From the NCBI GenBank assembly GCA_947313855.1, contig CAMZNS010000032.1, positions 1,306 to 65,305 of the forward strand: a stretch of 64,000 nt of DNA, given 5' to 3'. Made by a program: the position numbers and the translations under genes. The notes beneath the pieces are model-generated. The model was not told where the DNA came from. It searched no databases and was given only the letters and a program-made list of their open reading frames with translations. This stretch comes from an uncultured Deferribacteraceae bacterium. Its GTDB lineage: Bacteria; Chrysiogenota; Deferribacteres; CAMZNJ01. Shown here in pieces: positions 25,412 through 52,388 of this stretch (position 1 is its first letter; each line of letters starts with the position of its first letter).

Positions 25412-25454
25412 AAAGTCTCGCAACGCCGTCGATTATCAGTCGTAATGAGCAATA

Positions 25455-25575: not shown

Positions 25576-25626
25576 TAATAACATCAAATAATCGTACTGA
25601 ATTGTGACAGTACTAGGGGTTTTCGT

Positions 25627-26781: not shown

Positions 26782-26859
26782 AGCTAACTTGGTTAGTGCA
26801 TCAGCTACGGCGATGGCGTCGTCATGGCACCAGTATCGCCTAGCCCACTAGAGCTAACT
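26750..26859. repeat. 39-nt direct repeat (GTCATGGCACCAGTATCGCCTAGCCCACTAGAGCTAACT) duplicating the 3' end of rpiB downstream of its stop; copies at 26750-26788 and 26821-26859
   Basis: Direct reading. The second copy abuts the flgH stop codon on the opposite strand. Confidence 0.85.
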
Positions 26860-27657
26860 AAACGGCCAGAGCCAGTCTACAACTTTGCTGAATAGCCCTG
26901 TGTTCCTCGTATCAGAGATCATCCCTTTCCCGGAGTAGCTAATCTGTGCGTTAGCGATATTTTGCGATGAAACCACGTTGTTTGCGTTAATATCTTTGGG
27001 ACGAATCAGTCCTCGAATGGACATTATCTGCTTCTCATTATCCACAACAATTTCACGGTGCCCTTCAATTACCAGATTGCCTGATGGTAGTACTCGCAAA
27101 ACTGTTGCTGCGATTGTTGCCTGTATCTGATCTTGCCTTGTGTTTGAGCCTTGCCCGGCAAAAGATGACGTGTACTGCGTGCCTAGGTTTGGCGAAAAGC
27201 CCACTCCACTGCCGAGGAAGTTTGTTATGCCAAGGTCGAGTGGCAGTCCTCCCAGTGCTGTTGCCGAGGCTCCCACGGATGAGGTTTTCCCCGTTGTTGC
27301 ACTCCCTGTGTTGGTTGCGGATGATGATTCTGAAATGATTACGGTAATAAGGTCGCCCACTTGTCGTCCTTTGTAGTCGGCAAACAGGTCGCTTTTGTAT
27401 TCGTTATTTGCCCACAGTGATGCTGTACGCGAGGATTTTTGTGCAACTTGGTTATCGTAGTCTTCCATGAGAGCCACGTAGTCCACGGATGGTTCGAATG
27501 CCACACTGTCTGTGTTTACGCGGGCACATCCCCCCAGTGGCAATAGCATCAGCGACGCCAACGCAACCGATGCAAGCACAGAAACCTTTTTCAGATTCAT
27601 CGTAGGTGTATGGTTGGTTATGGTTTGTGGGATGGTAGTAGTTTTTGTGTTAATCAT
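26854..27657 (-). CDS. flgH: Flagellar L-ring lipoprotein FlgH
   Basis: The lipobox is LLPLGGC. FlgH signature regions are GDLITVIISESSSA and LRVLPSGNLVIEGHREIVVDNEKQIMSIRGLIRPKDI. The likely start is the internal Met at 27600. Confidence 0.85.
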   Translation of the reverse strand: MINTKTTTIPQTITNHTPTMNLKKVSVLASVALASLMLLPLGGCARVNTDSVAFEPSVDYVALMEDYDNQVAQKSSRTASLWANNEYKSDLFADYKGRQVGDLITVIISESSSATNTGSATTGKTSSVGASATALGGLPLDLGITNFLGSGVGFSPNLGTQYTSSFAGQGSNTRQDQIQATIAATVLRVLPSGNLVIEGHREIVVDNEKQIMSIRGLIRPKDINANNVVSSQNIANAQISYSGKGMISDTRNTGLFSKVVDWLWPFS

Positions 27658-28147
27658 AGGCGTACCCTTATGTTATAATCTCATGGTTTTCATATTAGCA
27701 ACCCCCCTCACAGAAGCCTATGAGAGGGGTTAGTGGTTTATCCTAATAGCGGATGTTGTGTTTTTGAGTAATAATTTTAACAGCAAGTGTTTGTGGTAAA
27801 AGTTAGTATGAAGTCGTCACTTGCGTACTGTAGAGCTTTTGGGCAACAGTTGAAGGTTCTTGTTCTGTTTAGAGAACTTGGAACATGGAAAGAACATCAT
27901 CAATCTTAGTTGCAACTTGGTAGATTCCTGTGAAAATAATCACATTGATTATTGCTTTCATAATGCACACCCTTCGTTTTATTTTGATAAATAAAACTTA
28001 TGTAATATGCATAGTAAGTAGCAACAAGCATGCCAACTTCGGACTATGGTGCTAATTTTTTGGGGATAAGTTGTTGATGAGGGGTTAAACCCTCCATAGA
28101 TAAAGGGTTTCGGGTGGTAGCTAAGTTTTGTGAATTATGTAGACGTG

Positions 28148-28970: not shown

Positions 28971-31900
28971 CTAAATATAGTTCATTAGGGATAGACCTAG
29001 TATTCTGCTTGTTGCTTGCAGTGCTGTTTCGTATATCAGCATGGACTGTTGATAGTTATTCGTTATGTTGTAGATATCGTTTTCGGTAGATCCTAGGTAG
29101 TTGGATCGGAACTGTTCTAGGTTGAGGTTTATCCGTTCGTTAAACGATATCTGGGAGCTTACAATATTCCCTCTGTTACCTATATCGGCATAAATGCTAT
29201 TTACCTGAGAGGCAATTTTGTCGAATATGTCAATTTCCTGTTGTACTCCTGATCCGAGTGCGGTGGTGAAGTTGTTGCCACGCATTACACTCCCTGAGTC
29301 GAACCCCAAGGAGATTCCGTCTGCTACGAAATAGTTTTGGTTGGCAGTTTTGATGTTAATGTTGTCCACTATTCTGCCTGCGGAATCGGTAATGGCAACG
29401 CTCAAGGACTCCCCTGCACGTGCAAACCCTAGCACTATGTTGTTTTCAGCCCTTGGATCGTGGTTCCCCTCGACAAACCCCACTGTTGTGTTGGCTTTGT
29501 TGACCACAAATCCAAACCCTTTATCCCCTGTGCGTACGGCGGTGAAGAATGTGTCAAGACCGGCTGTGGCAAGCTCTGTTGCCAGATCGTCCATGAGGTT
29601 GTTGAAGCCTGTGGTGCTGTAGTCTTTGTTGGGGATGGTAATGGATTGTGTCTGTACTTGCGTCCCGACCATGTATCGGAAAGTTAGTGTTCGTTCGTCC
29701 ACAGATGCTTTTGACAGATCGAGGCTTACCATGTCTGCAACGGGGCTGATGAGGTCAGTACCTTTGTATCCTACGCCTAGGGGGTTGTTGGGGGAGGCGG
29801 ACAGATACCCTGTGCCACTAGTGTACGTTGGCGTAATGGTGTCGCCACTACCTGCAAACGTTATCAGTGTATTGAGCACTGCTGAGGCTGATATCTGGTT
29901 GTTTATCTCTGTGGCGAGTGCATCGACGTCGCCATAGTTGTTGGCTGGTATGGTGATGGTGTCGCTCACCCAAGTATTTGTTCCGAGGTCGAAGGTTTTG
30001 ATGGTCATATCTTGTGCAACGGCAATATTTAGGTTGACGGGGAAAGGATCCCCTGTTGGCTTCCCCGCATCGAGGGCAATAATTGCCGCATCACTTTGTG
30101 CCGCTAGGTTTATGTTGCTTGTGCCCGCCCCAGACTTTACCACGAGGGTGCCACCATTGTCGTGTGCTACTATCCCTACTGCTTTGAATGCGGGGTCGTT
30201 ATTGATTGCGTCGATGATAAGTTTGTTTTGCTGTTTGAGGGTCATACCTGTGGGGTAGCTTGTTGCGGGGATTTGAACGGGGATGGTGCGAAGTGTGTCT
30301 TTGTCGTTATCCCATACCTCCACGTCGAACAGGATATCGCCTAGGGCGGGGCTAACGAGGGTGGTGTTGGCGTACTCCAAGCGAAGCTCGTCTTGGAGGT
30401 ACGACTCGGGGGACGAAGCGAACTGATTAACATTGAATCCCCATGTATCGTTGTTGTAGCCGGTGTATTGCCCTGAGAAGAATGCCTTTGCGAGGAGATC
30501 GTTGTTCGGATCGAGGGCCCATTCGCTTGGTGACAGGTCGCCATTGTCGCGAACATTGTTGCTCAAGGCGTCTTCTAGGTTTTGGATGGCGTTAAATATG
30601 TTTACGTTACTGCCCTGCTCCGTAATATGCATATCCCCTAGGCGAAGGTTGTTGCCACCACTTAGTGCGATGGTGAAGTTCCTGTCCACGCCTATGTTTG
30701 CTGCATCAATGGGGGGAGTCCACGAGATCCCCTGCTTCAGATCCACAGGACCACCCTTGTAGTCGGCAACTGTACCGCTAGCTATGGGACCACCCTTTTT
30801 GCTTACGATATTGTAGGTTAAGTCGAACCGACCACCAACGTTGTCTATGCGATAGCTAACATCCCAGTCCATGTCCCCTTGACCATCGTAAGAGCCACTT
30901 ATAATTTGGTCGGTGTACCCCAACGAGCGATCGATACCTCTGTTGTCGGGGGTCATGCTCAAGGATAGGCGACTGTCGGAACCGCTGTACAAATCCTCCA
31001 CAACAATCTGACCGACGCTGTTGATGGAAACGATTGCTGAGCCGTTGTAGAAGTTGTTGGCGAAGTTGAGGAGATCCTCGAACGATTTGTTGACAGGGGC
31101 GGAGTAGTCGCGACCCAAGGTTGCACTGTGCAGGGTGCCGTTGGACATGATGGACAGGGATGTGTTCTCGCCGTAATTCTCATTCTCGAAGGTGTAGGTT
31201 ATGTCGTAAACGTCGGCAACACCAGTGGCAACAACGTGGGATTGGATGTTAAACCCTGTGTCCATACTCATCTGCTTGTTTATCATAAACTGAATATCTA
31301 ACTCTGTCGAACCCGCAGGGATAGCTAACGTGTAGTCGTTGCCGTTGATGGTGTAGTTGTATGTACCCGAAGAGAGGTTTGTGTTGGTAGCGGTTAGTTG
31401 CAAAAACTCGTTGGCACCCGGTACCGTAAACGGACGAGTCGACAGGTTGAACTCGTTATCTTTCCCGTAGGTGAGGTTCCCCGTGTAGTCCTGAAACTTG
31501 TCAAACCCCAAAGCGTTATCGATGTCGCCAAACGCTGAGAGGGAAACCTTATCCCCAACCTCATTGGTCATTATCATAAGTTGCTGTCCGTCGGCAACAC
31601 TACGCAATTCGCCAGATATATCCACAACATGGCTAGTATCTTGAGGCGTGGGGGATAGTAGGGATGACCCAGCAAACGTTGCTGTTTTCATGGCAACGTT
31701 GAAAGCGTCGGAAAGATTTTCCACACTACCATAATTCTTCGCCTCAAGCTCTACCTTGTAGTAACTACTGCCATAACGAACATAAGTAATACGTGCACTA
31801 TCAGGGAGATCGGCTAAGTTAACATTAACCTCACTGGTGCCCGACACCCGTGCATTCCCCACAGGATGACCATAATGATCGCTTGCCCGAAACTGAATCG

Positions 31901-32906
31901 CATCACCGGGACTACTCTTCACACCATCCAATCCCGAAAACACGGAGGCTAAGTTTATTGGGAGACCGCTGTAGGTGTTGAGAAACGAACTCTGCAACGT
32001 CTTGTACGTGGACATGAATAAGGAGTTGCCTGAAACATTCAATGCCACATTGGAGTTGCTCCCTATCTGCGACACGATCTCACTGGAATCACCTTTGTAC
32101 GTAATATCCGAACCCGCAACATAGGTGAAATGGTATTCGGTGAAAAGGTGCGTCGTATTTTCGGGTAGCTTTATGGCCATGCCACGACCTAGGTTGACCA
32201 CCTTGCCAGGCTCGTATGCCACTGATGTTGAGAGCATCAACTTGTTGCCGTCACTCGTTGCATCATCGCTAGAGTTGGAGTCGATGGGTACGGCATTCCC
32301 GTATTTGTCGTACAGGGTAAGCTCTGCCATACCGTTGGAAATTGTTACCCCCATGCGATAGTCGCCCTGAGGGAGCTCCCGCACGTCGCTGAATGTATCT
32401 GTGGCGAACAAAGCCCCGTCGCTGTTGTTGCTAGAGCGAATGTTCTTCACATCGTTGCTACCCTCAACAAACGGCGGTTCACCTGTGCCAAAACCACCAA
32501 AAATATAGTGATCAAGGTAATCGGTGTTGGACAAACCAACAACCTGTTGCATAATGGACTTAATCGCCGAAGCCATGGAGCTCCTATCGCTAGCACTAAG
32601 GGTATCGTTGGCACCCTGTATGGCGTAGTCGTTTTTGACAGTATTGATAATGTTCACTAGGGAACCAACGGCGGAATCCGACTCTGTCAGCCAGTGTGAG
32701 GCTTTGTCCGCATTGTCGCCATAGGATTGCAGAATATTTATTTGTTGCTGTGTTTTGAGGTAGAACGAGTAGGATCGAACGTCGTTTTCAGGGTTAATCA
32801 ATTGGCGACCATTTAAAACACGCATGTAGTCTTGTTGCATGCGTTGGTTTGTGGACTGCATATGTGCTGCCCCTGTGTTGTACAAGCTGTTGAATGTAAC
32901 TCTCAT
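28971..32906 (-). CDS. flgL: Flagellar hook-associated protein 3 FlgL, giant form (1311 aa)
   Basis: The N-terminal flagellin-like helices are MRVTFNSLYNTGAAHMQSTNQRMQQ. The C-terminal helices are QEIDIFDKIASQVNSIYADIGNRGNIVSSQISFNERIN...SRILGLSLMNYI. About 900 aa of central insertion lie between them. Confidence 0.7.
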   Translation of the reverse strand: MRVTFNSLYNTGAAHMQSTNQRMQQDYMRVLNGRQLINPENDVRSYSFYLKTQQQINILQSYGDNADKASHWLTESDSAVGSLVNIINTVKNDYAIQGANDTLSASDRSSMASAIKSIMQQVVGLSNTDYLDHYIFGGFGTGEPPFVEGSNDVKNIRSSNNSDGALFATDTFSDVRELPQGDYRMGVTISNGMAELTLYDKYGNAVPIDSNSSDDATSDGNKLMLSTSVAYEPGKVVNLGRGMAIKLPENTTHLFTEYHFTYVAGSDITYKGDSSEIVSQIGSNSNVALNVSGNSLFMSTYKTLQSSFLNTYSGLPINLASVFSGLDGVKSSPGDAIQFRASDHYGHPVGNARVSGTSEVNVNLADLPDSARITYVRYGSSYYKVELEAKNYGSVENLSDAFNVAMKTATFAGSSLLSPTPQDTSHVVDISGELRSVADGQQLMIMTNEVGDKVSLSAFGDIDNALGFDKFQDYTGNLTYGKDNEFNLSTRPFTVPGANEFLQLTATNTNLSSGTYNYTINGNDYTLAIPAGSTELDIQFMINKQMSMDTGFNIQSHVVATGVADVYDITYTFENENYGENTSLSIMSNGTLHSATLGRDYSAPVNKSFEDLLNFANNFYNGSAIVSINSVGQIVVEDLYSGSDSRLSLSMTPDNRGIDRSLGYTDQIISGSYDGQGDMDWDVSYRIDNVGGRFDLTYNIVSKKGGPIASGTVADYKGGPVDLKQGISWTPPIDAANIGVDRNFTIALSGGNNLRLGDMHITEQGSNVNIFNAIQNLEDALSNNVRDNGDLSPSEWALDPNNDLLAKAFFSGQYTGYNNDTWGFNVNQFASSPESYLQDELRLEYANTTLVSPALGDILFDVEVWDNDKDTLRTIPVQIPATSYPTGMTLKQQNKLIIDAINNDPAFKAVGIVAHDNGGTLVVKSGAGTSNINLAAQSDAAIIALDAGKPTGDPFPVNLNIAVAQDMTIKTFDLGTNTWVSDTITIPANNYGDVDALATEINNQISASAVLNTLITFAGSGDTITPTYTSGTGYLSASPNNPLGVGYKGTDLISPVADMVSLDLSKASVDERTLTFRYMVGTQVQTQSITIPNKDYSTTGFNNLMDDLATELATAGLDTFFTAVRTGDKGFGFVVNKANTTVGFVEGNHDPRAENNIVLGFARAGESLSVAITDSAGRIVDNINIKTANQNYFVADGISLGFDSGSVMRGNNFTTALGSGVQQEIDIFDKIASQVNSIYADIGNRGNIVSSQISFNERINLNLEQFRSNYLGSTENDIYNITNNYQQSMLIYETALQATSRILGLSLMNYI

Positions 32907-33034: not shown

Positions 33035-34789
33035 CTACCTACCAACCAGCCCAAGCCGATTAACGATTAAGTCCAACATCTGATCAACAGCCGTAATAAA
33101 CCTTGCGTTCGCCTCATACGACTTCTGAAATTTTGTAAGATTTATTGCCTCTTCATCGAGGGAGACCCCTGTAACTGCGTCTAAGCGTACACTTACCGCC
33201 TGAAGTGAGACCAGCTTCGAGCCGGCAAAAATATCCGCCTCGTACTTCATGGCAGATATTTCCGCCACAAAAGAGGAGTAGTACGCCTCAAACGATATAT
33301 TCCCAAGCGACCCGCCAGTATTAATTCCTGACATGGCTATGGCGTTTGTATTATCGCCAACCTTACCTGACGTACCCGCCACCAAAAACCCTGAATCCAC
33401 CTGTATCTTTTGGCTTACAGAGATATCTCGCACACCTGTGCCGCTGAAAAAACTATTGAACCCCATAGCGGCCGAAAACCCCGTATTGTCGGCGGTGAAA
33501 GCGATTGTGCTGTTATCTTTACTCGACAGCACCAGTCGGTTGTCCGAATTAACAACAGCACTTATCAGCCCCCCTGAAGCATCACTAATCTTCTCCGCAA
33601 TGCTCCCGATGGAGTCGACTTTAGGGTCGATACTAATGTTAACAGTTTGCACAACCGTATTGTTGTCGTCATAAATACTCAGGGAGAACGATCCCGCCTG
33701 CATCTGAAAACTCGTATTCTCAAACGTATCACCAAGGTGCTGTTGCAACGGGAATCGAGAATCGGTAACGCTGTAGGCGGAAACAAGACTAGACTCTGCA
33801 CGCAAGTGTCGTCCTAGACCATGCACCTTGTTTGTTTCAAAGATTAGGGCACTAGCAAACGAATCTATCTGCTCGATGGTGTTCAGAAGGTTCTTGTCGC
33901 GAGAATCAAGGTCGCCGCGAATCGAGCCAGCACGTATTTGGCTAGTAATATCCACAGACTCGCCACGGGTGCCAATATTTACCCCCCGATACTTGATTGT
34001 CAGGAGCCTGTCCTGCCCCTCCCCAACCTCGGTAATAAACTTACCCGCATCACCACGATCCACAGCCACAACACCAGCGATTACGACGGCATAACTACCA
34101 TCAACACGCTCCGTTACGTTTGTTGGTGCGTAGTTAGAGATTGTCGCCACAGCCATGTCACGTTTGTCACGCAATTCATTTGCGATTGTAACCCCATCAC
34201 TCTCAATCTCCACTATTTTCAGGTTATACTGAGCAATATTTTTCAACTGCATATTCATGTCATCCACAGCGATATTAACTTTGACCTCAATATCATCGCG
34301 AACAGACTCAATATGCTTGTAGCCGTCTTGGAGCTTATCCGAAAGGGTGACAGCTTTGTTGACTACGTTGTTTCGGTTTGTCAGAGCTGTCTGGGTATCG
34401 TCTGGCGGTGTTCCCCCAAGGGTAACCCACGATTGTGTGTAGTCACTAAGGGCATCGGAGAGTCCGCCACTCCCGTCGAGTTCGTTGAAGTATTGTTGTA
34501 GGTTGCCGATGTTTTCCTGCATCGAAGACCACATGGTAAACCCCGACATTTCATGGCGAACATTTGATGCAAGGAGATCGTCGTAAACACGCTCAACACG
34601 GGTAAGGCTAGCACCTGTGCCGAACCAACCACGAGTGTCGATAGCTTCACGGGATTCGATAACAGCACGTTGACGCGAATAACCGACCGTATTGGCATTA
34701 GAAATATTATTACCTGTAACACTGATTCCTGCTTGGGCGGTGTAGAGCCCCGACGAGCCGGTGTAGAGCATTCCGAACAAAGAACTCAT
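33035..34789 (-). CDS. flgK: Flagellar hook-associated protein 1 FlgK
   Basis: The N-terminus is LFGMLYTGSSGLYTAQAGISVTGNNISNANTVGYSRQ. The C-terminal conserved helix is QKSYEANARFITAVDQMLD. Confidence 0.9.
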   Translation of the reverse strand: MSSLFGMLYTGSSGLYTAQAGISVTGNNISNANTVGYSRQRAVIESREAIDTRGWFGTGASLTRVERVYDDLLASNVRHEMSGFTMWSSMQENIGNLQQYFNELDGSGGLSDALSDYTQSWVTLGGTPPDDTQTALTNRNNVVNKAVTLSDKLQDGYKHIESVRDDIEVKVNIAVDDMNMQLKNIAQYNLKIVEIESDGVTIANELRDKRDMAVATISNYAPTNVTERVDGSYAVVIAGVVAVDRGDAGKFITEVGEGQDRLLTIKYRGVNIGTRGESVDITSQIRAGSIRGDLDSRDKNLLNTIEQIDSFASALIFETNKVHGLGRHLRAESSLVSAYSVTDSRFPLQQHLGDTFENTSFQMQAGSFSLSIYDDNNTVVQTVNISIDPKVDSIGSIAEKISDASGGLISAVVNSDNRLVLSSKDNSTIAFTADNTGFSAAMGFNSFFSGTGVRDISVSQKIQVDSGFLVAGTSGKVGDNTNAIAMSGINTGGSLGNISFEAYYSSFVAEISAMKYEADIFAGSKLVSLQAVSVRLDAVTGVSLDEEAINLTKFQKSYEANARFITAVDQMLDLIVNRLGLVGR

Positions 34790-34792: not shown

Positions 34793-35356
34793 TTACCCCT
34801 TAAATGAAATGGTGCTAATGTCTGAACCGCCACTTGTTGGTTTCCAAGGTGAGTTTGCGTAAACGCCACTATTTGCAATCCCCACCGACTGAAAGAACCC
34901 CTCGCAAAGACGCTTATTTGTGTTATAAACCGACTGGAGTTGAGCCGTCAACCCCTTCAGAGCTAGCACCTGTTCTTCGATTGTTTTTTGCAGTAGCTCC
35001 AACTCTGTTGCGATAGAGGTGTCAGGCATATCTTTCAACGCCTCGATAACTTGAGGGAGAGTCATCTCCGACGATCCAAGCTCTCGGCACACTCTGGTCA
35101 TAATGGCGGTCTTGCTTTTGCCAAGAACAGCTTCGTTTGCGATGAGTGTCTCCTTACGCTTGGTAAACTCCTCCACCGCCTCACTATCCCATTGTATTGC
35201 ACTTTCAAGCTCTTGAGTCGAGATGGTAATAAATTCCGTCAAAAGGTTGGACGACGACACTAAAACATCTCTCAAGCGTTGAATAATCTCCATAACGTCA
35301 CCTCGATCATAAGTATCATTTGCGTTCATCAGTAGTGTTAACGGCATTCTCAGCAC
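34793..35356 (-). CDS. Probable flagellar chaperone FlgN-like protein
   Basis: It is small, helical and acidic. It sits between flgM and flgK, the canonical flgN position. No strong motif was found. The likely start is the Met at 35296. Confidence 0.4.
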   Translation of the reverse strand: MLRMPLTLLMNANDTYDRGDVMEIIQRLRDVLVSSSNLLTEFITISTQELESAIQWDSEAVEEFTKRKETLIANEAVLGKSKTAIMTRVCRELGSSEMTLPQVIEALKDMPDTSIATELELLQKTIEEQVLALKGLTAQLQSVYNTNKRLCEGFFQSVGIANSGVYANSPWKPTSGGSDISTISFKG

Positions 35357-35426
35357 TGGCTAACACTACTCCACATATCACTCTATTCCCTAGCAATTTT
35401 CTAGCCAACTCTCCGCCGTCTGGCGT

Positions 35427-35531
35427 TGTGGACGTGTGGGACGTGTGGGACGCGGGGGGACGCATGGAACGTGTGGGACGTGTGGGACGTGTGGGACGCG
35501 GGGGACGCGGGGGGACGCGGGGGGACGCATG
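35427..35531. repeat. G-rich tandem repeats (GGGACGTGT / GGGACGCGGG units, about 12 copies) in the flgM-flgN spacer
   Basis: Direct reading. There are multiple GGG/GGGG runs on the plus strand. Confidence 0.85.
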
Positions 35532-35628: not shown

Positions 35629-35700
35629 CGCAGGAGCAAAACTAACGAACGCAGGAGCAAAACTAACGGACAAGTGGACAAAACTAACGGACAGGCGGAC
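35629..35700. repeat. Tandem about 20-mer GCAGGAGCAAAACTAACGRAC (3 degenerate copies) immediately downstream of flgM
   Basis: Direct reading. Confidence 0.75.
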
Positions 35701-36020
35701 TACTCCGAGTCAAGAGATATCTCATCAAACACACTATTAACCATCGCCGCCGCAATTAAATCGGGAGAGGGCTTGTACGTTCCATTAGCAATCTTTTCCT
35801 TAAGATCATTCACCAAATCCAAACGAATATTCGGCTGACTCTCAATGGACTTGGACAAAGAGGAAGCACTACTACTCACAGATACAGAGGCTGCCGATGG
35901 CACCTTGGCACCAGGGGAGGACTCTGCACCCACAAGAGCATTACGTTTACTACTGTTTACACTTACCCTATCTGAATCTAGATAAGGTGGCAATAACGAC
36001 GCATCTCCGTTTATTTTCAT
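35700..36020 (-). CDS. flgM: Anti-sigma-28 factor FlgM
   Basis: The C-terminal signature is RLDLVNDLKEKIANGTYKPSPDLIAAAMV. Confidence 0.7.
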   Translation of the reverse strand: MKINGDASLLPPYLDSDRVSVNSSKRNALVGAESSPGAKVPSAASVSVSSSASSLSKSIESQPNIRLDLVNDLKEKIANGTYKPSPDLIAAAMVNSVFDEISLDSE

Positions 36021-36403: not shown

Positions 36404-36940
36404 CTAATATACTTTGTTGTCAAGTGCTTTGTCGTTAAAATTCTGAGACTTTATCTCTCTAAGGGTGCTGGATAGCCCCAAATACTGATCTGTTAGCATG
36501 TTGCTATTTATTTTATCACCACCATTATTGTTACCAGCTGTAACTTCAACATCCGAAGACGGAACTATTACCCCTGCCGATCTGAGCTGATTAGTGCGAT
36601 TCTCATGCCAACCTTCAAGGGTCGGTAGCAGAGATTGATACACCATTTCAGAGAGACCGTAAGGATTTTTGTGCGACGCCATGTCGGCAATTTCTGCATC
36701 CAACATGGAGGTAAATATTTTCTCCTCTTGAGTTGTCTGAAATAAACCTTTCTCGTCATCGTCAGAAAAACTTATCTTACGCATGGACTTAAATATTTCG
36801 TTGGTCAATAGCGACTCGAAACTTTCTGCCAATGTGCGTAACTTATCCTTCTGCATGCTCAAAAATTTCTCAGGATCGCGAGTATCCCCACCTACCTGCA
36901 TGGCGGTGGCTTTGTATTGAGTGCTGTTAATGCTTTCCAT
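36404..36940 (-). CDS. flgJ: Flagellar rod-binding protein (FlgJ N-terminal-domain-only homolog, no muramidase domain)
   Basis: The rod-binding-domain motif is LRTLAESFESLLTNEIFKSMRK...EEKIFTSMLDAEIADMAS. Confidence 0.65.
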   Translation of the reverse strand: MESINSTQYKATAMQVGGDTRDPEKFLSMQKDKLRTLAESFESLLTNEIFKSMRKISFSDDDEKGLFQTTQEEKIFTSMLDAEIADMASHKNPYGLSEMVYQSLLPTLEGWHENRTNQLRSAGVIVPSSDVEVTAGNNNGGDKINSNMLTDQYLGLSSTLREIKSQNFNDKALDNKVY

Positions 36941-36954: not shown

Positions 36955-38034
36955 TTAGATTATTTCCAGTTCTGCGTGCAATGCACCTGCAACTTTCACA
37001 CTTTGGAGTATGGCTATGAGGTCGTTGGAGGTGGCACCCACGGCGTTGAGGGCACGGATGAGATCCCCGATGGTTGCCCCCCCCCCTAGGGAGAATACAC
37101 TTGCTTGTGTTGCACCTTCGATGAGGGGATCGAGGTCGTTTGGTGCTCCATCGAGTGGTGCATCGCTCCCTATTGTGATGGTCATCCCTGCGTGTGATAC
37201 TGCCACTTGGTTGATGCTAACGTCCGAGCCCATGACAACCGTACCTGTGCGTTGGTCGATTACTACTCTGGCAAAATTTGCGGGGGTAATTTCTAGGTTG
37301 AGGATGGTGTTGAGGAAGTCGTAGTAGCTTGCACGATAGTTTTCAGGGACAGCAACCGAAACCGTATTCGGGCTTGAGATGATGCTGATGGGTGAGTTGA
37401 AGAATTTGTTGATGGCATTTTTGATGCTTACGGTGTCGTCAACGTTGTACCTTGATAGCGACAGGTCGATCTTTGTGGTGTCCATGTTGTAGTCGATTTT
37501 GTGTTCGACAAACCCACCGTTGGGGATATTCCCTGCAGTCAGTGCGACACCGTTGGGGTCGACAACAACTTGTCCTTGAGCGATGGCGTATATTTGTCCA
37601 TCGGCACCAACAAGTTGTGTCATTAGTAGTGTGCCGCTTGCCAGCGAGCTAGCGTCCCCTAGGGATGATATTTTCAGGTCGATACGTGATCCCGGTTGTG
37701 CGAATGGTGGTAGCATTGCTGTGACCATAACAGCGGCGACGTTATTGACGTTGATGTCTGCTGCGTTTACCGATACTCCCATGCGTTCCAGAGCTGAGGA
37801 GAGTGATTGCACGGTGAATTGTGCATTTTGCGAGTTATCGCCGGTGCCTTCAAGACCTACAACGAGTCCGTATCCGATGAGCTGATTGAATCGAATCCCT
37901 TCGACGGTGGATATGTCCCGTATTTTCACTGATGCTAGAAGGTTGGTGCTAAGGAGTAGCATGACTGTTGTGATGGCAATGATGGCCAAGGGTTGTTTCC
38001 CATCTATTTTGGTGTACTTTGCGAATCTAGTCAT
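36955..38034 (-). CDS. flgI: Flagellar P-ring protein FlgI
   Basis: The signal peptide is followed by VKIRDISTVEGIRFNQLIGYGLVVGLEGTGD. The FlgI family is matched throughout. Confidence 0.9.
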   Translation of the reverse strand: MTRFAKYTKIDGKQPLAIIAITTVMLLLSTNLLASVKIRDISTVEGIRFNQLIGYGLVVGLEGTGDNSQNAQFTVQSLSSALERMGVSVNAADINVNNVAAVMVTAMLPPFAQPGSRIDLKISSLGDASSLASGTLLMTQLVGADGQIYAIAQGQVVVDPNGVALTAGNIPNGGFVEHKIDYNMDTTKIDLSLSRYNVDDTVSIKNAINKFFNSPISIISSPNTVSVAVPENYRASYYDFLNTILNLEITPANFARVVIDQRTGTVVMGSDVSINQVAVSHAGMTITIGSDAPLDGAPNDLDPLIEGATQASVFSLGGGATIGDLIRALNAVGATSNDLIAILQSVKVAGALHAELEII

Positions 38035-38179
38035 ATTAGTTTATTCCCTGCGTGTATTTATTCGGCTACGTTGTTGCACCTTGTTAAGGGCGTTGTTTGT
38101 TGCCATGTAGTTCACAGCAATTAGTGTGCCATGGGGTGGCGGTTTGGTTAAACCAGATTGTTTGGTTAAACGCCCTTGT

Positions 38180-40159
38180 TTAGTTAAACGCCCCCGCTGC
38201 TTCGAGTATGCTTACAATGTTCACGCTATTGTACAACCCTGCCACACGCCTTGCTGTAAACCCTGCGTCGTTGGTATGAGTAACGTCGGCACCGTAAACG
38301 AGTAGTTGTTGTACTAGCTGTTGGTTGTTGTTTGTTACCCCCCATATTAGTGGTGAGTCGCCGGCAATGTTGTAGATATTCGGGTTCGCACCATTTTTCA
38401 GCAGTAGGTTGACGATGGTGAGTGAGTCGCGACTTGCGGCTAGTATGAGTGGTGTGTTCCCTTCAACATTTTGTGTGTTCAGGTTGGCACCAGCATCAAC
38501 TAGCATGGACACAATACCGTATTGATCTTGTGCGATTGCGAGGAAGATGGCGGTGTTGCCTGTTTCGTTGTCCACAATATCGGGGGAGGCACCCAACCTT
38601 AGGGCACGCTGTACTTTGGCGATGTTGCCCGTATTGGCACCATCAAACATCATGGCATTGTATTCGGTTAGTTGGCTGTAGTATTCGGAGAGGATATTTT
38701 GTATTACGGGATAGCCGTTCTGTTCAGCAATGTCGTATGCTGTGGAGCGTTCGTTGTTTTGAGTAAGTGGGTTCGGTTTGTTTTCGATAACGAGGCGAAC
38801 CATATCGAGGAACCCATTGGAAGACGCAACCATGAGTGGTGTGTTCCCGTCGGAGTTGACGATGTCGACCATGGCACCGTCGTTGAGTGCTTCACGTGCG
38901 GTGGCAATGCTGTTATTCATTACGGCAAGCATGAGGGGGGTGTTGCCTTGATTGTCTTTTGTTTCGAGGTTGGCACCGTAGTTGACTAACGTACGCATGG
39001 TGAATACGTTGTCGTTGTAGGATGCGAGGGAGAGGGCTGTTCGACCATTGTTGTCCCGTGTTTCGATATCAGTGGAGTAGGAGGCTAGTATGTTTGCTGT
39101 GGCGGAGTTGCCCACACTGGCAGCAATCATGAGGGGGGTACGCCCCTGAGCGTCCACCGTATCTATCTGTGCACCGCTAGCAATGAGCAGGTTAACAATG
39201 TCGGAGTCGCCACGGTATGATGCGTACGCCAAAACGGACATCTCTTGGTTATCCTTGCTGTTGGGGCTAGCACGAAGGCGTAGTAGCATCTCCACAACGT
39301 CTTCATGGGAGTACACAACAGCATACATGAGGGCGGTTTGCCCCCGAGCGTTGGTTCGGAAGATGTCCGCACCCTGTTCGATGAGGAATGTTGCTGTTTC
39401 GTATTGGTTGTTGGCGAGGGCGTACATGAGAGCTGTGTTGCCTAAGGCATCCACGGTGTTGATGCTCAGGGTGGACACCTCGATACTGCGAGCAAGGGCA
39501 TCAAGCTGACCGCGAGACGCCGCATAAAGTAGGGGGCTCTTAGGGGACAAACCAACATCTATGTTGACCAAACTCTTCTCTTGAACCACAGTGTAACGCT
39601 TAGTCAACGTTGCAATACTGTTGGAGTCGTCTAGGTTGCTCTTCATACCCATACGCTCACGCATACTGTAAGCGTTAGCTGAGTCCTCAATGTAGAGGAT
39701 CGTCTGAACGGTGTCGGAACGCTCACCAATGGTTTCACTCGAAGTGAGCACGTTGTCCACAACAACAAGCTTACGAAGCAGGGTTGACTGTGGTATCTGG
39801 TAAATATTGCCGTAATCGAAGTCCACCGCAATCCCGATACGATTAACATCTGTCCCCAAGGCATTGTTGTTGATGAACCACTCACCACGACGACGAACAA
39901 GATCTATGGACACGTCGCGATAACCACGCTTCTCCAAAACAACATGATAGCTGTCGCCAGAGATGCGAACCCATGAAGGGAGTGCCGCAACTTTATTGTT
40001 GATAAAATATTCAGCATTCTTTTTGGATGGTGGCTTGGTAAGGCTTCGAACATCAGACGAAAAATATGAACAAGACGCTATTATGGGCAAAATTAACATC
40101 ACCAAACCCAACTTCAAAAACCTCAACATAACAAGAACCCTCCGCACACGGACACACAA
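38180..40159 (-). CDS. Ankyrin-repeat lipoprotein (about 12 ANK repeats), co-directional with and immediately upstream of flgI
   Basis: The lipobox is LILPIIASC. There are repeated ANK consensus units (G.TALMYA....V..LL..GA..N..D..G.TPL). The likely start is the Met at 40129. Confidence 0.8.
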   Translation of the reverse strand: MCVRVRRVLVMLRFLKLGLVMLILPIIASCSYFSSDVRSLTKPPSKKNAEYFINNKVAALPSWVRISGDSYHVVLEKRGYRDVSIDLVRRRGEWFINNNALGTDVNRIGIAVDFDYGNIYQIPQSTLLRKLVVVDNVLTSSETIGERSDTVQTILYIEDSANAYSMRERMGMKSNLDDSNSIATLTKRYTVVQEKSLVNIDVGLSPKSPLLYAASRGQLDALARSIEVSTLSINTVDALGNTALMYALANNQYETATFLIEQGADIFRTNARGQTALMYAVVYSHEDVVEMLLRLRASPNSKDNQEMSVLAYASYRGDSDIVNLLIASGAQIDTVDAQGRTPLMIAASVGNSATANILASYSTDIETRDNNGRTALSLASYNDNVFTMRTLVNYGANLETKDNQGNTPLMLAVMNNSIATAREALNDGAMVDIVNSDGNTPLMVASSNGFLDMVRLVIENKPNPLTQNNERSTAYDIAEQNGYPVIQNILSEYYSQLTEYNAMMFDGANTGNIAKVQRALRLGASPDIVDNETGNTAIFLAIAQDQYGIVSMLVDAGANLNTQNVEGNTPLILAASRDSLTIVNLLLKNGANPNIYNIAGDSPLIWGVTNNNQQLVQQLLVYGADVTHTNDAGFTARRVAGLYNSVNIVSILEAAGAFN

Positions 40160-40309
40160 CCATGACTAGTAACTCTCCTCTTTCAAGCAATTTCAATACC
40201 AACTCAAACGACAAGAGCAAAAAATACACAAACAAAAAAGGGCAAGCACAGCACAATAATGCTGAACCTACCCTCTTACGTAAACTATTCGAGTTGAAAA
40301 GCTTAAAGC

Positions 40310-43597: not shown

Positions 43598-43731
43598 CAA
43601 CTTACGAACACAACTTACGAACACAACTTACGAACACAACTTACGAACACAACTTACGAACGCGACTTACGAACACAACTTACGAACGCAACTTACGAAC
43701 GCAACTTACGAACGCAACTTACGAACGCGAC
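43598..43731. repeat. Intergenic tandem 13-mer CTTACGAAC(A/G)C(A/G)A, about 10 copies, in the 5' region of the PHP gene and just downstream of ruvB
   Basis: Direct reading. The unit length is not a multiple of 3. Confidence 0.9.
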
Positions 43732-45005
43732 GAAGACGGTGTCCAAGGTACGCCAAGATGTGCATATGCCTGCTCAGTGGCAACCCGTCCACGTGGCGTT
43801 TTATGCACAAAACCTAAATAAATAAGGTAAGGCTCAATAACATACTCCACCGTGACCCTGTCCTCCGAAAGCATGGACGCCATCGTCTCAAGACCCACCG
43901 GTGCCCCTTTATACACCTCTATCATTGCACGCAAATAACCCACATCTGCCGTCGTAAGACCGATGGGATCAACGCCGATACGATTCATACCCTCTTGTGC
44001 GATGGACTTCGTAATCTTGCCACCATTGTAAACGTCGGCAAAATCGCGAATACGATTAAGGGTGCGAAGGGCTATGCGAGGCGTGCCACGTGAACGACTA
44101 CCTATTTCGATAGCAGCATCAGCATCTAAAGTGGCGATACTAGAACTACTCTGAGCAGCATTCAACACGATAGTAGCAAGCTCCTCATGTGTGTAGTACT
44201 CAAGACGCATAATAATGCCAAACCGATCCCGAAGGGGGGAAGTGAGCATACCAGCACGCGTTGTCGCACCAATAAGGGTGAACGGCGGGAGATCCATGGT
44301 AACAGTGCGAGCAGCAGGACCCTGACCGATGATGATGTCCAAACGGTAGTCCTCCATGGCAGGGTAAAGGAGCTCCTCAACCGATGGATGAAGGCGATGG
44401 ATCTCGTCGATAAATAAAACGTCGCCAGCGTTGAGGTTGGTCAAGATGGCCGCCAAGTCGCCCTGCTTTTCGATGGTAGGACCTGTGGTAGTGCGGATTG
44501 TGGTGCCCATTTCGTTGGCGATAATGTTCGCAAGGGTGGTTTTCCCTAACCCTGGGGGACCATAAAACAGTGTGTGATCCAACGGCTTCTCACGCCGACG
44601 CGCTGCTTCGATGTAAACCTTGAGGTTGCCAACAACATGGGACTGACCGATGTACGTGCTGAAACTTTGGGGTCGTGTGCTGATGTGTGCATTTATCGTG
44701 GGATCTGCCCACGTATCATCGGCACCGTCAGCGTCGTAACCAGAGCCGCCAGCATCGTAACCAAAGCCGTCAGCATCGTAACCCGAGCCGTCAGCATCGT
44801 AGCCAGAACCGCCAGCATCGTAACCCGAGCCGCCAGCATCGTAACCAGAACCGCCAGCATCGTAACCCGAGCCGTCAGCATCGTAGCCAGAACCGCCAGC
44901 ATCGTAACCCGAGCCGCCAGCATCGTAACCAGAACCGCCAGCATCGTAACCCGAGCCGTCGCCTTTCGTATCCCTATTCTTTTCCATGGAAGAAGTATAC
45001 CCCAT
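43719..45005 (-). CDS. ruvB: Holliday junction branch-migration helicase RuvB with an N-terminal about 16-copy (GSGYDAG)-type repeat extension
   Basis: The RuvB core has Walker [12 protein letters not shown], the motif [11 protein letters not shown] and sensor motifs. The only in-frame Met codons lie upstream of the repeat array, so the repeats are translated if the gene is intact. Confidence 0.9.
44722..44960 (-). repeat. In-frame 15-nt tandem repeat (about 16 copies) encoding GSGYDA(G/D)G at the ruvB 5' end
   Basis: Direct reading. The unit length of 15 preserves the frame. Confidence 0.9.
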
Positions 45006-45087: not shown

Positions 45088-45370
45088 GTTGCTTGCTTGC
45101 GTTACGTTGCTTGCTTGCGTTACGTTGCTTGCTTGCGTTGCTTGCTTGCTTGCTTGCGTTACGTTGCTTGCTTGCGTTGCTTGCTTGCTTGCGTTACGTT
45201 GCTTGCTTGCGTTGCTTGCTTGCTTGCTTGCGTTACGTTGCTTGCTTGCGTTGCTTGCTTGCTTGCTTGCTTGCGTTACGTTGCTTGCTTGCGTTACATT
45301 CCCACCCGCGTTACTTGCTTGCTTGCGTTACGTTGCTTGCTTGCGTTACATTCCCGCCCGCGTTGCCCGC
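45088..45370. repeat. Intergenic tandem array of about 18-mer GTTGCTTGCTTGCGTTAC units with GCTTGC sub-repeat variation, about 280 nt, immediately upstream of ruvB
   Basis: Direct reading. It generates several spurious Leu/Ala/Cys-rich ORFs in the track. Confidence 0.9.
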
Positions 45371-47897: not shown

Positions 47898-49130
47898 TTG
47901 TCCCTAATTGTGCTAAAGTGGTGGTTGCTTCCACTGTGCTTGAAGTACAGAACGTCACCATTAGGAGTTCGTATGCGTGGTTTATACATACATGTGCCAT
48001 ACTGTCAAATGCGATGCCACTACTGTGCGTTCTACTCCAAAACCCGATTCGACACGAACGAACCTGAACTGTTTGCCCGTAGTGTTGTTGCTGAGCTGTC
48101 CACCTTGCAAAACACGAACTTCCAAACGGTGTATATCGGTGGCGGAACCCCAACGATCATGGGCAACGGACTTGTGGAACTTATTCAGCAGGTGGCGAAT
48201 ACCATCCAGCTCCCACAAGTGGCGGAGTTTACCATCGAGGCGAACCCGGAATCACTAACGCCTGACCTACTCCATAACCTCAAACACTACACACCCGTCA
48301 ACAGAATAAGCATCGGTGCACAGTCTTTCGACGACAAAACACTGAAATTCCTCAACAGACCACACTCAGCTAAAGTGGCAACTCAGCGTATCGAAAAATC
48401 GCTAAACCTAGGCTTCAACACCGGTGCCGACATTATATTCGACATACCAACAGTTCCAACCAGCAACACTCTCAACGATATCAATACACTCGTCAAACTT
48501 GGCGTAAACCATATCTCAGCATACTCCTACACTCCAGACACAAACTTCCTCAAAGACAAAGTCAACCCTGACAATACAATATTCGACCAAGTTGCAAACG
48601 AAATAACAAAATACGGCTACAAACACTACGAAGTCAGCAACTTTGCCCAAAAAGGGTGCGAATCCAAACACAACGGAATATACTGGAACATGGACGAATA
48701 CATGGGACTAGGACCTTCAGCACACTCAATGTTCTACAACGACAAAGGGGAACGAATACGATACAAAAACGTGAGCAACACAAAACTCTACTGCCAAAAC
48801 TACGAAAAATATCGACAATACACAACGCTAACCTCACACCAACAACTAATGGAAAGCTTTGTCTTCCCCTTACGAACAAGTCGAGGCGTTGACGTGGCAA
48901 ACGTCTTGAATCGAATGCCCATAGCATGGCAACAAGATCGGAAAAATAATCAGGGGAACAGGAACGAACAACCGAGACTAAAAATATTGCAAGGACTACC
49001 AGACGAACTGCAAAAAAGGGTTGTGCACCTCATGGACAAACAACTACTACTCGAAACACCTGTGGGAGTCGCAACAACACCGAAAGGACTCATGCTACTA
49101 GACTCGGTGATGGAGTATTTATACTACTGA
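47898..49130 (+). CDS. hemW: Radical SAM heme chaperone HemW (HemN-like, oxygen-independent coproporphyrinogen oxidase family)
   Basis: The motif YIHVPYCQMRCHYCAFY (CxxxCxxC) is present. Further motifs are GGGTPT and the HemN C-terminal domain. The likely start is the ATG at 47973. Confidence 0.85.
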   Translation: MSLIVLKWWLLPLCLKYRTSPLGVRMRGLYIHVPYCQMRCHYCAFYSKTRFDTNEPELFARSVVAELSTLQNTNFQTVYIGGGTPTIMGNGLVELIQQVANTIQLPQVAEFTIEANPESLTPDLLHNLKHYTPVNRISIGAQSFDDKTLKFLNRPHSAKVATQRIEKSLNLGFNTGADIIFDIPTVPTSNTLNDINTLVKLGVNHISAYSYTPDTNFLKDKVNPDNTIFDQVANEITKYGYKHYEVSNFAQKGCESKHNGIYWNMDEYMGLGPSAHSMFYNDKGERIRYKNVSNTKLYCQNYEKYRQYTTLTSHQQLMESFVFPLRTSRGVDVANVLNRMPIAWQQDRKNNQGNRNEQPRLKILQGLPDELQKRVVHLMDKQLLLETPVGVATTPKGLMLLDSVMEYLYY

Positions 49131-50012: not shown

Positions 50013-50073
50013 AGTGTTGCTCCATTGTTGACTAAAACGTGCGTGTTTGCGTTAATGCAGGGTAAAGGAGGGC

Positions 50074-50185: not shown

Positions 50186-50223
50186 GGTGCCCAAATAACT
50201 ATAACACCGCAACGTTCATGGTT

Positions 50224-50841
50224 TTAGTCGGTGTAGAATAGTCCTATTTTTTTGTCGTCGCGAACATACACAACCTTAACAGAGTTGTCTTCCACATCCC
50301 TGAATACGTAGAAGTTTTTGTGTAGGAGTTCCATTTGCAAAACAGCTTCGTCGAGCATCATGGGTTTGAAGGGTACGTCTTTCACTACAACAGCGGTGGA
50401 CATGCCGATATTTTCGTCATTGTCGTCCCCATCCATGCCAAACGGCTCGTAAACCGCCATTTTGAATGTTTCGTCCCCTTTGCGAACGGACAGCCTTTTT
50501 GTTAGGCTTTTGTCTTTGTATTTCGATAGTTTTGCTTCTAGCTTGTCCGTTGCCTCTTCGATGGATGCGTAAAGGTCGTTTGTTGAGGCAGTTGCTTTGA
50601 AGAAGACTCCTTTTACGAGGAGTAGCATCTCCACCTTGTGTGTATCTTTTTGAACCGAGTAGGTAACGATTAGGTCGGCGTCTTTTTTGGGGTAATGTTT
50701 AAACACTCGTTCCGTTTTCTTGTCTGTGAATTCTTTTATGGCCTCTGTTACATCGAGTCCTCTTCCAACATACTTCGTCATATGAATACCTCCAGTATTA
50801 GGAATATATCTTACGTGTTCAGTATTTTCTACTGTTGTCAT
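50224..50841 (-). CDS. hpf: Ribosome hibernation-promoting factor HPF (long form)
   Basis: The N-terminal S30AE/YfiA domain is GRGLDVTEAIKEFTDKK...VEMLL. It also has a C-terminal dimerisation domain. It lies directly downstream of rpoN. The likely start is the Met at 50781. Confidence 0.85.
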   Translation of the reverse strand: MTTVENTEHVRYIPNTGGIHMTKYVGRGLDVTEAIKEFTDKKTERVFKHYPKKDADLIVTYSVQKDTHKVEMLLLVKGVFFKATASTNDLYASIEEATDKLEAKLSKYKDKSLTKRLSVRKGDETFKMAVYEPFGMDGDDNDENIGMSTAVVVKDVPFKPMMLDEAVLQMELLHKNFYVFRDVEDNSVKVVYVRDDKKIGLFYTD

Positions 50842-52388
50842 TGCGTTCGATCGAATCTTGATGGTATGGCAAAGTCTTCGCGGTATTTGGTAACAGTTCG
50901 TCGGGCGATTTTTATCCCCCTTTCGGCAAGTTTTTCGGATATTTTTTGGTCGCTTAGTGGGTTATTTTTGTTTTCTCCGTCAATTATTTCTTGCAGAACC
51001 AGTTTTACGGCTTGGTTAGAGAGAGTGTTCCCCTCTGAGCCAGCGGGTTTGGGCACCCCTTTTACGAAGAAGTGTTTGAGTTCGAGTAGTCCGTACGCCG
51101 TCATGGCGAATTTACCTGCTGTTGCTCTGCTTACGGTGGATTCGTGCAGTCCTGTGACTGTTGCGATGTCCACAAGACGCAGTGGGCTAAGCCTGAGTGA
51201 TCGTTTCATTAGGAAGTCTTCTTGGTGTTCGGCAATTACTTCGCAAACTCGTCGAATGGTATCTTGTCGTTTTGTTAGCCCTGATATTAGAAATTGTGCT
51301 TCTTTTAGTTTTTCGTCAACATATTTTTTATGTCCGATGTTATTTGGTGTGTTTGTTTTGTTATTTTTGATGTCTAGGAACATTTTGATATACTTGCGAT
51401 TAATTCCTAGGGATGGCACAACGTTGTCGTTTAGTGTGATTTCGATACTGTCATTGTTGGCGTTGGGCACAAGGTAGATATCGGGAATAATGTGGTGTCC
51501 AACACTATCGTACCCTTTGCTGGGTGCAAGTGTAGTTTTTTTGATGGATGCGGCTGTCCGCTCTACGAATGTTGTGGGTATCCCTAGTGCTGTGGCGATT
51601 TTGCTATAACGCATGAGCGACAGCTCTTTTAGGTAGTCGTGGAGTAGTATGGTTGCGAGTTCTACCTCGTCGGGGCATACCTCCATATCTTTCATCTGTT
51701 TGATTATGCTCTCTTGGAATGAGGCACAGGCGACGCCAACAGGGTGAAACTCTTTGATAACGTTGAGCACCTCTTCAAACTCGCCAACAGTTATGCCTAG
51801 GTATCTGCTTGATTTTTTAATATCGAGGGTAAAGAAGCCGTTGTCGTCAAGGTTTCCGATAATGTACATCCCTATTGTTTCTTGGCTTGGCGAGAGGTGC
51901 GAGATGATTAGCTGTTTTGAAAGTGCTTCGTACAGGGATTCGGTATGCCCCACAAAGCTTTCATACTCCACAAAATCGGTGTCGCCGTAGGAGTCTATCC
52001 CAGTCATGGGTTGGTAGGTTTCGCTGATGAAGTTGTCCCATTCGTCGGAATCGAACGTTTCGTAAATCGAGTCATCTTTGCCGCTAATATTTTCGGTGGT
52101 ATCTTGGGTATTGCTAGTGTTGTCGGTGTTATTGGAGTCTGAGTCTGAGCCGGAATCTGCGTTTGTGTTTGCGTCCATGTTTATGTTTGTGTTTGCGTCT
52201 GATTCTGCGTCGGCGTCTAGGTCGTGTGTGTACTCGAGTAGTGGGTTCTCCTCCATGAGTTCGCCGATGGTGGAGGCGAGTTCCATGGTTGTCATGCGTA
52301 ACATGCTAATGGATTGTTGCATGGAGGCAGTCATGACAATCTTCTGGCTAAGCTGATTATTGAGGGATAGATTTATTCCTTGAGCCAT
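50838..52388 (-). CDS. rpoN: RNA polymerase sigma-54 factor RpoN with an acidic low-complexity insertion
   Basis: The N-terminal Gln/Leu-rich region I is present. The C-terminal RpoN box is ARRTVTKYRE. A helix-turn-helix is present. Confidence 0.9.
   Translation of the reverse strand: MAQGINLSLNNQLSQKIVMTASMQQSISMLRMTTMELASTIGELMEENPLLEYTHDLDADAESDANTNINMDANTNADSGSDSDSNNTDNTSNTQDTTENISGKDDSIYETFDSDEWDNFISETYQPMTGIDSYGDTDFVEYESFVGHTESLYEALSKQLIISHLSPSQETIGMYIIGNLDDNGFFTLDIKKSSRYLGITVGEFEEVLNVIKEFHPVGVACASFQESIIKQMKDMEVCPDEVELATILLHDYLKELSLMRYSKIATALGIPTTFVERTAASIKKTTLAPSKGYDSVGHHIIPDIYLVPNANNDSIEITLNDNVVPSLGINRKYIKMFLDIKNNKTNTPNNIGHKKYVDEKLKEAQFLISGLTKRQDTIRRVCEVIAEHQEDFLMKRSLRLSPLRLVDIATVTGLHESTVSRATAGKFAMTAYGLLELKHFFVKGVPKPAGSEGNTLSNQAVKLVLQEIIDGENKNNPLSDQKISEKLAERGIKIARRTVTKYREDFAIPSRFDRTQ

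Follow-up and report, generated by a model that had tools for sequence, protein, structure and literature searches.

The window analysed here, a stretch of 64,000 nucleotides (nt) from an uncultured Deferribacteraceae bacterium (GenBank assembly GCA_947313855.1, contig CAMZNS010000032.1), carries ank (38180..40129), a gene for a 649-amino-acid (aa) exported ankyrin-repeat lipoprotein. It is located upstream of the P-ring gene flgI (36955..38034), and the two genes are separated by 145 nt (38035..38179). All genes of the locus are on the minus strand. Upstream of ank is a housekeeping block (fabI, radA, a PHP-family gene, and ruvB), and ank is placed at the junction of this block and a flagellar one. 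The original prediction, made from the letters of the DNA, described an open reading frame (ORF) with a lipobox on the same strand as flgI and upstream of it, followed by flgJ, flgM, flgN, flgK, flgL, fliW, and csrA; the ORF was confirmed by ORF analysis, Pfam, and the public gene call, and its neighbours by Pfam, NCBIfam, and translation.

The longest ank ORF covers 38180..40159 (659 aa, TTG start). The likelier start is the ATG at 40129, which has a GGAGGG Shine-Dalgarno sequence (40138..40143) 8 nt upstream and gives a 649-aa product identical to the public gene call P0001. Residues 1–20 (MLRFLKLGLVMLILPIIAS, then C) were read from the sequence as a signal peptide closing with a lipobox, IIAS/C (40070..40129; Cys20 codon at 40070–40072), with Ser at position +2. 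The signal is basic and hydrophobic, the lipobox has the form [LVI][ASTVI][GAS]C, and the product is a predicted lipid-anchored substrate of signal peptidase II (SPII). The same signal and lipobox were found in the homologues P0127–P0130. The mature protein would face the periplasm rather than the cell surface.

Pfam searches with the 659-aa ORF matched ankyrin families only, from approximately aa 205 to the C-terminus (Ank_2, E 2e-86; Ank, E 8e-63). An AlphaFold2 model built on three sequences contained 14 helix-pair repeats in aa 199–649 (38183..39535), mostly with a predicted local distance difference test (pLDDT) score above 85, arranged as a 9-repeat stack, a long helix (474–500), and a 5-repeat stack. 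The tandem units of ~33 residues, each a helix-loop-helix with a hairpin, form a solenoid as in other ankyrin proteins. The twelve repeats counted originally were therefore an undercount.

The flgI gene was recognised by Pfam (FlgI, E 5e-105) and is followed by a flgJ-like gene (36404..36940), flgM (35700..36020), flgN (34793–35356), flgK (33035–34789), a giant flgL (28971–32906), fliW (28439–28918), and csrA (28148–28393). The flgJ-like gene, flgM, and flgN were assigned by Pfam and flgL by NCBIfam and Pfam, and flgK, fliW, and csrA were assigned by translation only. The flgJ-like product (178 aa) has the rod-binding domain only (Pfam Rod-binding), without a muramidase domain. The flgL homologue encodes 1311 aa, 3–4 times the usual length; FlgL and flagellin models match only the N-terminal ~150 aa, and the large middle part is unannotated. 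The L-ring gene flgH (26854..27657) is apart from flgI, after csrA, and is preceded by a sigma-54-type site of its own and a hydrophobic ORF of 30 aa (27869–27961). Further motility-related genes are on the plus strand at 3100–9470, with lon in between: FapA (3100–4686), a ParA/MinD-type ATPase that is possibly FlhG-like (7435–8331), and a CheW-domain protein (8349–9470).

A strong intrinsic terminator closes the fabI gene (40230..40277, minus; dG −29.7 kcal/mol, z −6.7, with a U run after it). It shields ank from transcription that comes from upstream, so ank needs a promoter of its own. A sigma-54-type −24/−12 element, TGGTATTGAAATTGCT (40186..40201, minus; GG-N10-GC), is located 57 nt upstream of the ank ATG. 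Its chance probability is 0.025 for the gap, and it is kept in the sister species (L007) beside an 85-nt indel. The flgI gene has a consensus sigma-54 promoter, TGGCACACTAATTGCT (38116..38131, minus; chance P 0.006), which is the sole perfect (0-mismatch) TGGCAC-N5-TTGCW in the window and is also kept in L007. The length of the ank–flgI gap varies in L007, and indels flank both conserved sites. Further elements were found upstream of flgN (TGGCTAGAAAATTGCT, 35392..35407, minus; P 0.003) and ahead of the 30-aa ORF and flgH (TGGCATGCTTGTTGCT, 28020..28035, minus; P 0.016). In a distant Deferribacteraceae metagenome-assembled genome (MAG; L008), the single such site, TGGCATACACTTTGCT, directly precedes flgH. 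The pattern TGG-N8-TTGCW occurs nine times in the 64 kb, and five of these sites are in the 11% that is non-coding. All but one of the five precede ank, flgI, flgN, and flgH in the correct orientation, with a chance of 0.003–0.025 of one such site per gap.

The gene for sigma-54 itself, rpoN, is present in the window (50838..52388, minus) with all three sigma-54 domains. It belongs to a canonical lptB-rpoN-hpf-rapZ cluster (49119–53335, minus), which supports the promoter calls. Sites of the form TGGCAT-N5-TTGCT were found 52–82 nt upstream of homologues of the P0127 type (L088, L094, L095, L100, and L111) and of P0130 (L090), in very AT-rich spacers and with a chance of 0.003–0.009 each. No such element was found upstream of P0012/P0013, P0128, P0129, or the operonic homologues from insect guts. 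Having a −24/−12 element at a suitable distance and rpoN in the genome, ank would be transcribed in dependence on sigma-54, and a sigma-54-type promoter common to the ring genes is probably recurrent in the ank family, in three lineages including that of the window. In L100, a second sigma-54-type site, TGGCACATTATTTGCA (7868–7883), is ~365 nt upstream of a gene for a 303-aa membrane protein (8248–9159). This protein is conserved in the low-GC lineage two genes upstream of the ankyrin-repeat (ANK) gene (in L095 at 5999–6910), and in L095 a gene for a methyl-accepting chemotaxis protein sits between the two.

The ank–flgI gap contained no terminator-like hairpin (z −1.3), and a terminator scan of the minus strand was also negative there, so read-through from ank into flgI is possible. 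A −10-like sequence in the gap, GCCGAATAA, was considered as part of a sigma-28 promoter and dropped; it is not conserved in L007. Generic sigma-70 and terminator scans of the window gave counts no greater than in shuffled sequences. No gene for an enhancer-binding activator of the FlgR/FleQ/FlrA type was identified in the window.

The part of the product between the lipobox and the repeats (aa 21–198; 39536..40069) was analysed by profile and AlphaFold2. The original prediction recognised no domain in the N-terminal ~200 aa, and they matched no Pfam family, but they are not featureless. A model built on 16 sequences gave a beta-rich fold (pLDDT 80–91 over the mature residues 20–100), and the family profile reached short PEGA-domain lipoproteins (P0136, E 6e-6; P0137–P0139, E 1.6e-4 to 7.6e-4). 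The conserved motif GW...G..(I/V)DF..G..Y..P has a counterpart, GW...(I/V)DF.(S/T)G..Y..P, in these small proteins. Alignment with PEGA lipoproteins (PF08308; NCBIfam LEPBI_I2678 family) covers the PEGA-like strands and the GW/DF motif, and both have a lipobox; the small lipoproteins have a hydrophobic glycine-rich segment where the ank product is polar. The domain of the window protein itself gave no PEGA (PF08308) match at E up to 1, and the comparison with the PDB gave no match by fold or sequence profile (Foldseek, nothing below E 0.9). Taken together, the profile matches suggest a distant relationship between the N-terminal ~180 aa and PEGA-domain lipoproteins. The domain was also considered as a remnant of FlgH, an idea taken from the flgH-flgI order of L008. 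This was rejected: there was no FlgH Pfam match, flgH is intact elsewhere in the window, and the domain is found in homologues far from flagellar genes.

Conservation on the ankyrin surfaces differed between the stacks. Over the whole family, the positions that form the binding face in designed ankyrins were not better conserved than the outer ones (0.30 vs 0.25). In the N-terminal 9-repeat stack, the concave face varies. In the C-terminal stack the concave face is conserved, at 0.64 vs 0.21 for outer positions in the repeat at aa 521 and 0.47 vs 0.37 in that at aa 587, which fits a conserved partner and suggests a single conserved ligand for this stack.

The FlgI protein of the window is 92% identical to that of the uncultured Deferribacteraceae MAG M_SnakePit_MAG_00002, named 'Candidatus (Ca.) Rimicarispirillum nautilei' by Aubé et al. 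This sequence comparison identifies the window organism as 'Ca. Rimicarispirillum', which belongs to the Deferribacterota and lives as a symbiont in the midgut of Rimicaris shrimp. To collect homologues of ank, a profile of the N-terminal domain was run exhaustively against 1.84 billion representative proteins. It matched 15 proteins, 10 of them full-length (646–663 aa, same architecture) and four short PEGA lipoproteins. The ank family thus comprises 10 clusters at 50% identity, of ~650 aa, and its full-length members are co-linear repeat for repeat at ~30% identity. All carry an export signal (a lipobox or a Sec-type signal peptide), and the family tree has three clades, with the window protein alone on a deep branch. 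A word-indexed search with the 16-sequence N-terminal alignment gave no matches, probably a limit of the tool, as the exhaustive search found the family. A metagenome scan with the full-length alignment retrieved mostly generic ankyrin proteins, with true members only in L094, L095, L100, and L111.

Two members are named, 'Deferribacteraceae bacterium' and 'Deferribacterales bacterium RsTz2092' (contig series BAAIHG01); the latter is 'Ca. Termitispirillum reticulitermitis', which lives as an ectosymbiont on protists of the termite gut. Other members are on contigs of 28–31% GC that occur in many samples, and the taxon of most homologues was inferred from GC content and synteny. The GC content of Mucispirillum is 31% (PMC9636832), and the low-GC contigs resemble it in this respect. 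The cultivable mouse-gut member of the phylum, M. schaedleri, probably carries an ank homologue. Judged from the named and placed members and the few profile matches, the family appears to be old and so far specific to gut Deferribacterota; absence from free-living Deferribacterota is read from the small number of matches in the profile search.

The gene order ruvB-PHP-radA-fabI-ank-flgI-flgJ-flgM of M_SnakePit_MAG_00002 is that of the window, at 84–92% nucleotide identity, and in the sister species ank itself keeps its neighbours and is 92% identical. The ank–flgI linkage stood in the sister species and did not extend outside the genus, where a different flagellar linkage was found. The homologue closes a flagellar and chemotaxis array in at least three lineages from insect guts. 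In L092/L093 ('Ca. Termitispirillum reticulitermitis') this array is fliA-cheB-fliM-fliN-cheY-cheZ-like-cheA-small-OmpA-like-partner-ANK, with a partner protein of 326 aa. The array of L173 is of this type from fliM on, and that of L175 from flhF-flhG on, with the contig stopping inside the N-terminal domain of ANK. Adjacent genes of these arrays overlap or are at most 32 nt apart; this includes the OmpA-like, partner, and ANK genes, which thus form an operon. The CheA proteins of the insect-gut-type loci are ~54% identical, which marks the loci as separate lineages.

The distant MAG L008 (FlgI 46% identical) has flgH-flgI-flgJ-flgM-flgN without ank and, ~6.5 kb further on the same contig, cheA-small-OmpA-like-partner; the contig stops before the expected ANK gene. 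Since flgH and flgI are adjacent there (895–2731) and apart in the window (compared over 26854–28147), the ring genes have been rearranged, and ank is at the break. The partner protein (324–328 aa) is membrane-anchored at its C-terminus. Throughout the insect-gut clade its gene directly precedes that for ANK (L092, 7024–8004; L173, 6523–7509; L091, 62–1045; L175, 10001–10975), and in L008 it is at 10501–10947. The partner family has 11 clusters, and the given names are of Deferribacter type only. No Pfam or NCBIfam family matched the partner, although its N-terminal part resembles, by eye, a restriction-endonuclease-like domain. In L092 the gene two downstream of ANK matches FlgT_N just below the Pfam cut-off (E 8e-6; 26.7 vs 28.8 bits). 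ANK is followed by a lipoprotein-maturation gene in both L092 (lspA) and L173 (lgt; 9959–11005), and the gene after lspA in L092 encodes the FlgT_N-like, LipL46-like exported protein (9962–11792 for the two L092 genes).

A periplasm-facing accessory of the flagellum, analogous to MotX/MotY or PflA/PflB, is the function that we tentatively favour for the ank product, at somewhat below even confidence. All support for it is comparative: the family is encoded within, or shares its promoter type with, flagellar clusters in the window, L007, L092/L093, L173, and L175. The periplasmic scaffold of the original prediction is accordingly retained as a hypothesis supported by the cheA-cluster neighbours and the sigma-54-type promoter. 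The protein would be made under sigma-54 together with ring, rod, and hook-associated proteins and held by its lipid anchor, next to which the small beta-rich PEGA-like domain is placed. The two ankyrin stacks (9+5) would serve as a protein-binding platform, and the conserved C-terminal face may dock on a conserved bacterial partner near the P-ring or the peptidoglycan. In this way the product would come into contact with the motor.

Pairs of an alpha-solenoid and an OmpA-like protein are known around the P-ring, as in the T-ring pair MotX/MotY of Vibrio, and PflA/PflB are known as a scaffold in Campylobacter (PMC5774414). MotX is a Sel1-repeat alpha-solenoid and MotY an OmpA-like peptidoglycan binder; the insect-gut ANK is likewise encoded with an OmpA-like gene in a flagellar cluster, and the position proposed for the ank product, by the P-ring and peptidoglycan, is that of MotX/MotY (PMC5774414). 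The H-ring protein FlgT of Vibrio has a possible counterpart in the FlgT_N-like gene near the L092 ANK gene. The repeats differ (Sel1 in MotX, ankyrin in ank) and show no sequence homology, and the ank product is much larger (649 aa), lipid-anchored, and equipped with an extra PEGA-like domain, while the window has no adjacent gene for an OmpA-like partner. PflA/PflB of Campylobacter and the collar protein FlcA of spirochaetes, all with tetratricopeptide repeats, are periplasmic scaffolds of spiral, host-associated mucus swimmers, in which they stabilise the stator ring or increase its width. They belong to another repeat class with no homology to ank. In Campylobacterota, flagellar basal-body genes are under sigma-54.

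Several observations weigh against a flagellar role. Direct ank–flgI adjacency was found in Rimicarispirillum only (the window and L007). In eight other contexts (L002–L006, L087–L090, L094, L095, L100, and L174) no flagellar gene is within 6–10 kb of the homologue; the neighbours there include cation-efflux, glutamate-racemase-type, TauE, and phosphotransacetylase genes, and pseudopilin, GspE, and GspF genes in L090. It is also possible that the two flagellar arrangements are not independent, as L008 has both clusters within 10 kb, and they may derive from one ancestral supercluster. Searches with Pfam, NCBIfam, and, for the N-terminal domain, Foldseek against the PDB revealed no resemblance in sequence or fold to MotX, PflA/B, FlgT, FlgP, or collar proteins. 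Sigma-54 also drives non-flagellar genes, and every placeable family member is gut-associated, which fits a role at the host equally well. Of the signs of independence from flgI named in the original prediction, a promoter-like site of its own and the lack of direct adjacency outside the genus were both found, but a terminator between the two genes was not. A literature search found no paper tying ankyrin proteins to flagellar motors and none on the Deferribacterota motor, and ankyrin is not mentioned in two Rimicaris symbiont genome papers.

A more specific form of the flagellar role, in which the ank family forms or nucleates a new periplasmic ring or scaffold around the Deferribacterota P-ring, is doubtful on the same comparisons. 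If true, the ank product would be the first ankyrin-repeat structural part of a bacterial flagellum, convergent with the Sel1-repeat and tetratricopeptide-repeat scaffolds MotX, PflA/PflB, and FlcA, to which bacteria swimming in mucus owe their high torque.

Alternatively, the product could be a host-interaction factor, a eukaryote-like ankyrin protein displayed on the surface or released (e.g., by type II secretion), that binds surface proteins of the host or protist and aids life among microvilli, in mucus, or on protists; its flagellar position would then reflect shared regulation at the colonisation stage, or chance. The placed members are from gut-associated Deferribacterota (the shrimp midgut, the termite-gut protist ectosymbiont, and the low-GC Mucispirillum-like contigs), only 10 full-length clusters were recovered by the exhaustive search, and no member lacks an export signal. 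The 9-repeat stack varies on its concave face, and in L090 the ank homologue adjoins pseudopilin, GspE-like, and GspF-like genes. M. schaedleri is reported to carry 10 ANK genes, which were discussed as host-interaction candidates (PMC5285517). For the Rimicaris symbiont MAGs, the published passage on secretion names type II secretion and Sec-SRP only, reports no type VI or Tat (twin-arginine translocation) system, and is silent on type IV secretion (PMC9636832).

Long ankyrin arrays in host-associated bacteria are also found in the Ank effectors of Legionella and Coxiella and in the ankyrin-repeat proteins of sponge symbionts, and the latter, like the ank product, have a Sec-type export signal. 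However, length, repeat number, and the C-terminal face are conserved in the ank family despite hosts as unlike as mouse mucus, shrimp microvilli, and termite protists, which is unusual for effectors that target the host, and neither membership in a cheA operon nor a sigma-54-type promoter common with the ring genes is predicted by a host role. Unlike a translocated Dot/Icm-type effector, the ank product has a Sec/SPII signal; against the NCBIfam effector models, including that of the Legionella Dot/Icm Ank effector, its best score was 166 bits vs a cut-off of 600, and all NCBIfam ankyrin matches were far below their cut-offs. Surface exposure of lipoproteins is not known in the Deferribacterota phylum, which also counts against this explanation. 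A host role is, in sum, unlikely.

Ankyrin proteins may also act in the bacterium's own envelope or cytoplasm rather than in the host cell, as do the small proteins AnkB of Pseudomonas aeruginosa and Cj1386 of Campylobacter. These are short (~4–6 repeats) and encoded beside catalase; ank is longer, and no catalase gene was found near it in the window or in the relatives examined. The ank product could be a general envelope protein, a periplasmic adaptor in the biogenesis of peptidoglycan or lipoproteins or in envelope stress, with incidental flagellar neighbours and possibly under sigma-54 as well. Such a function would match the glutamate racemase-type and PBP1A neighbours in L002–L006, the lspA and lgt genes downstream in L092 and L173, the OmpA-like peptidoglycan-binding gene upstream within the clade from insect guts, and the resemblance of the N-terminal domain to small PEGA lipoproteins. 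These neighbours vary by lineage, however, and are mostly outside the ank operon, the only conserved operon partners being cheA, the OmpA-like gene, and the partner gene. The correctly placed sigma-54 sites of the window are, moreover, confined to the flagellar block, and a general envelope function is considered quite improbable.

Finally, a recent foreign insertion or a non-functional ORF beside flgI by chance, the option left beside the scaffold in the original prediction, is very improbable: ankyrin genes are often acquired horizontally and ank is exactly at the junction of the housekeeping (ruvB, PHP-family, radA, and fabI) and flagellar genes, but its GC content (0.496) and GC content at third codon positions (0.563) are within one standard deviation of those of the window genes, it is an intact ORF with a Shine-Dalgarno sequence and a predicted fold of high confidence, the sister species has it at 92% nucleotide identity with the same neighbours, and co-linear homologues are present in three further clades of divergent Deferribacterota.

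Elsewhere in the window, many intergenic spacers are filled by short tandem repeats (units of 4–42 nt, one of 86 nt), for example at 43598–43726, 44724–44958, 45088–45347, 35430–35528, 23709–23924, and 50074–50133. One 21-nt array is inside ruvB, at the 5' end of the gene, where it codes for GSGYDAG repeats. At the same places, other repeat units are present in the sister species L007, which indicates that the arrays evolve fast. A 640-aa predicted lipoprotein (VACGG; 45370–47292, minus) had no Pfam or NCBIfam match. The region 10001–26000 stands apart from the remaining window by its strongly negative GC skew and the large swings of its AT skew, and contains repeat-rich coding stretches; ORFs without a family match are found at 14427–16127 and, at its margin, 9502–10794. 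An Rfam scan of the window found one tRNA only, far from the ank locus.

The high-torque motors of host-associated spiral bacteria have added lineage-specific periplasmic scaffolds, of which few are known and none from Deferribacterota. If the ank product is part of the motor, ankyrin would join the folds that have been recruited to the flagellum, in convergence with MotX/MotY and PflA/PflB. If it instead binds the host and is co-regulated with flagella through sigma-54, motility would be linked to host contact in three dissimilar gut symbioses, those of shrimp microvilli, mouse mucus, and termite protists. In both cases, the locus points to a protein family that is small and uncharacterised, and to a flagellar regulon in Deferribacterota that is probably under sigma-54.

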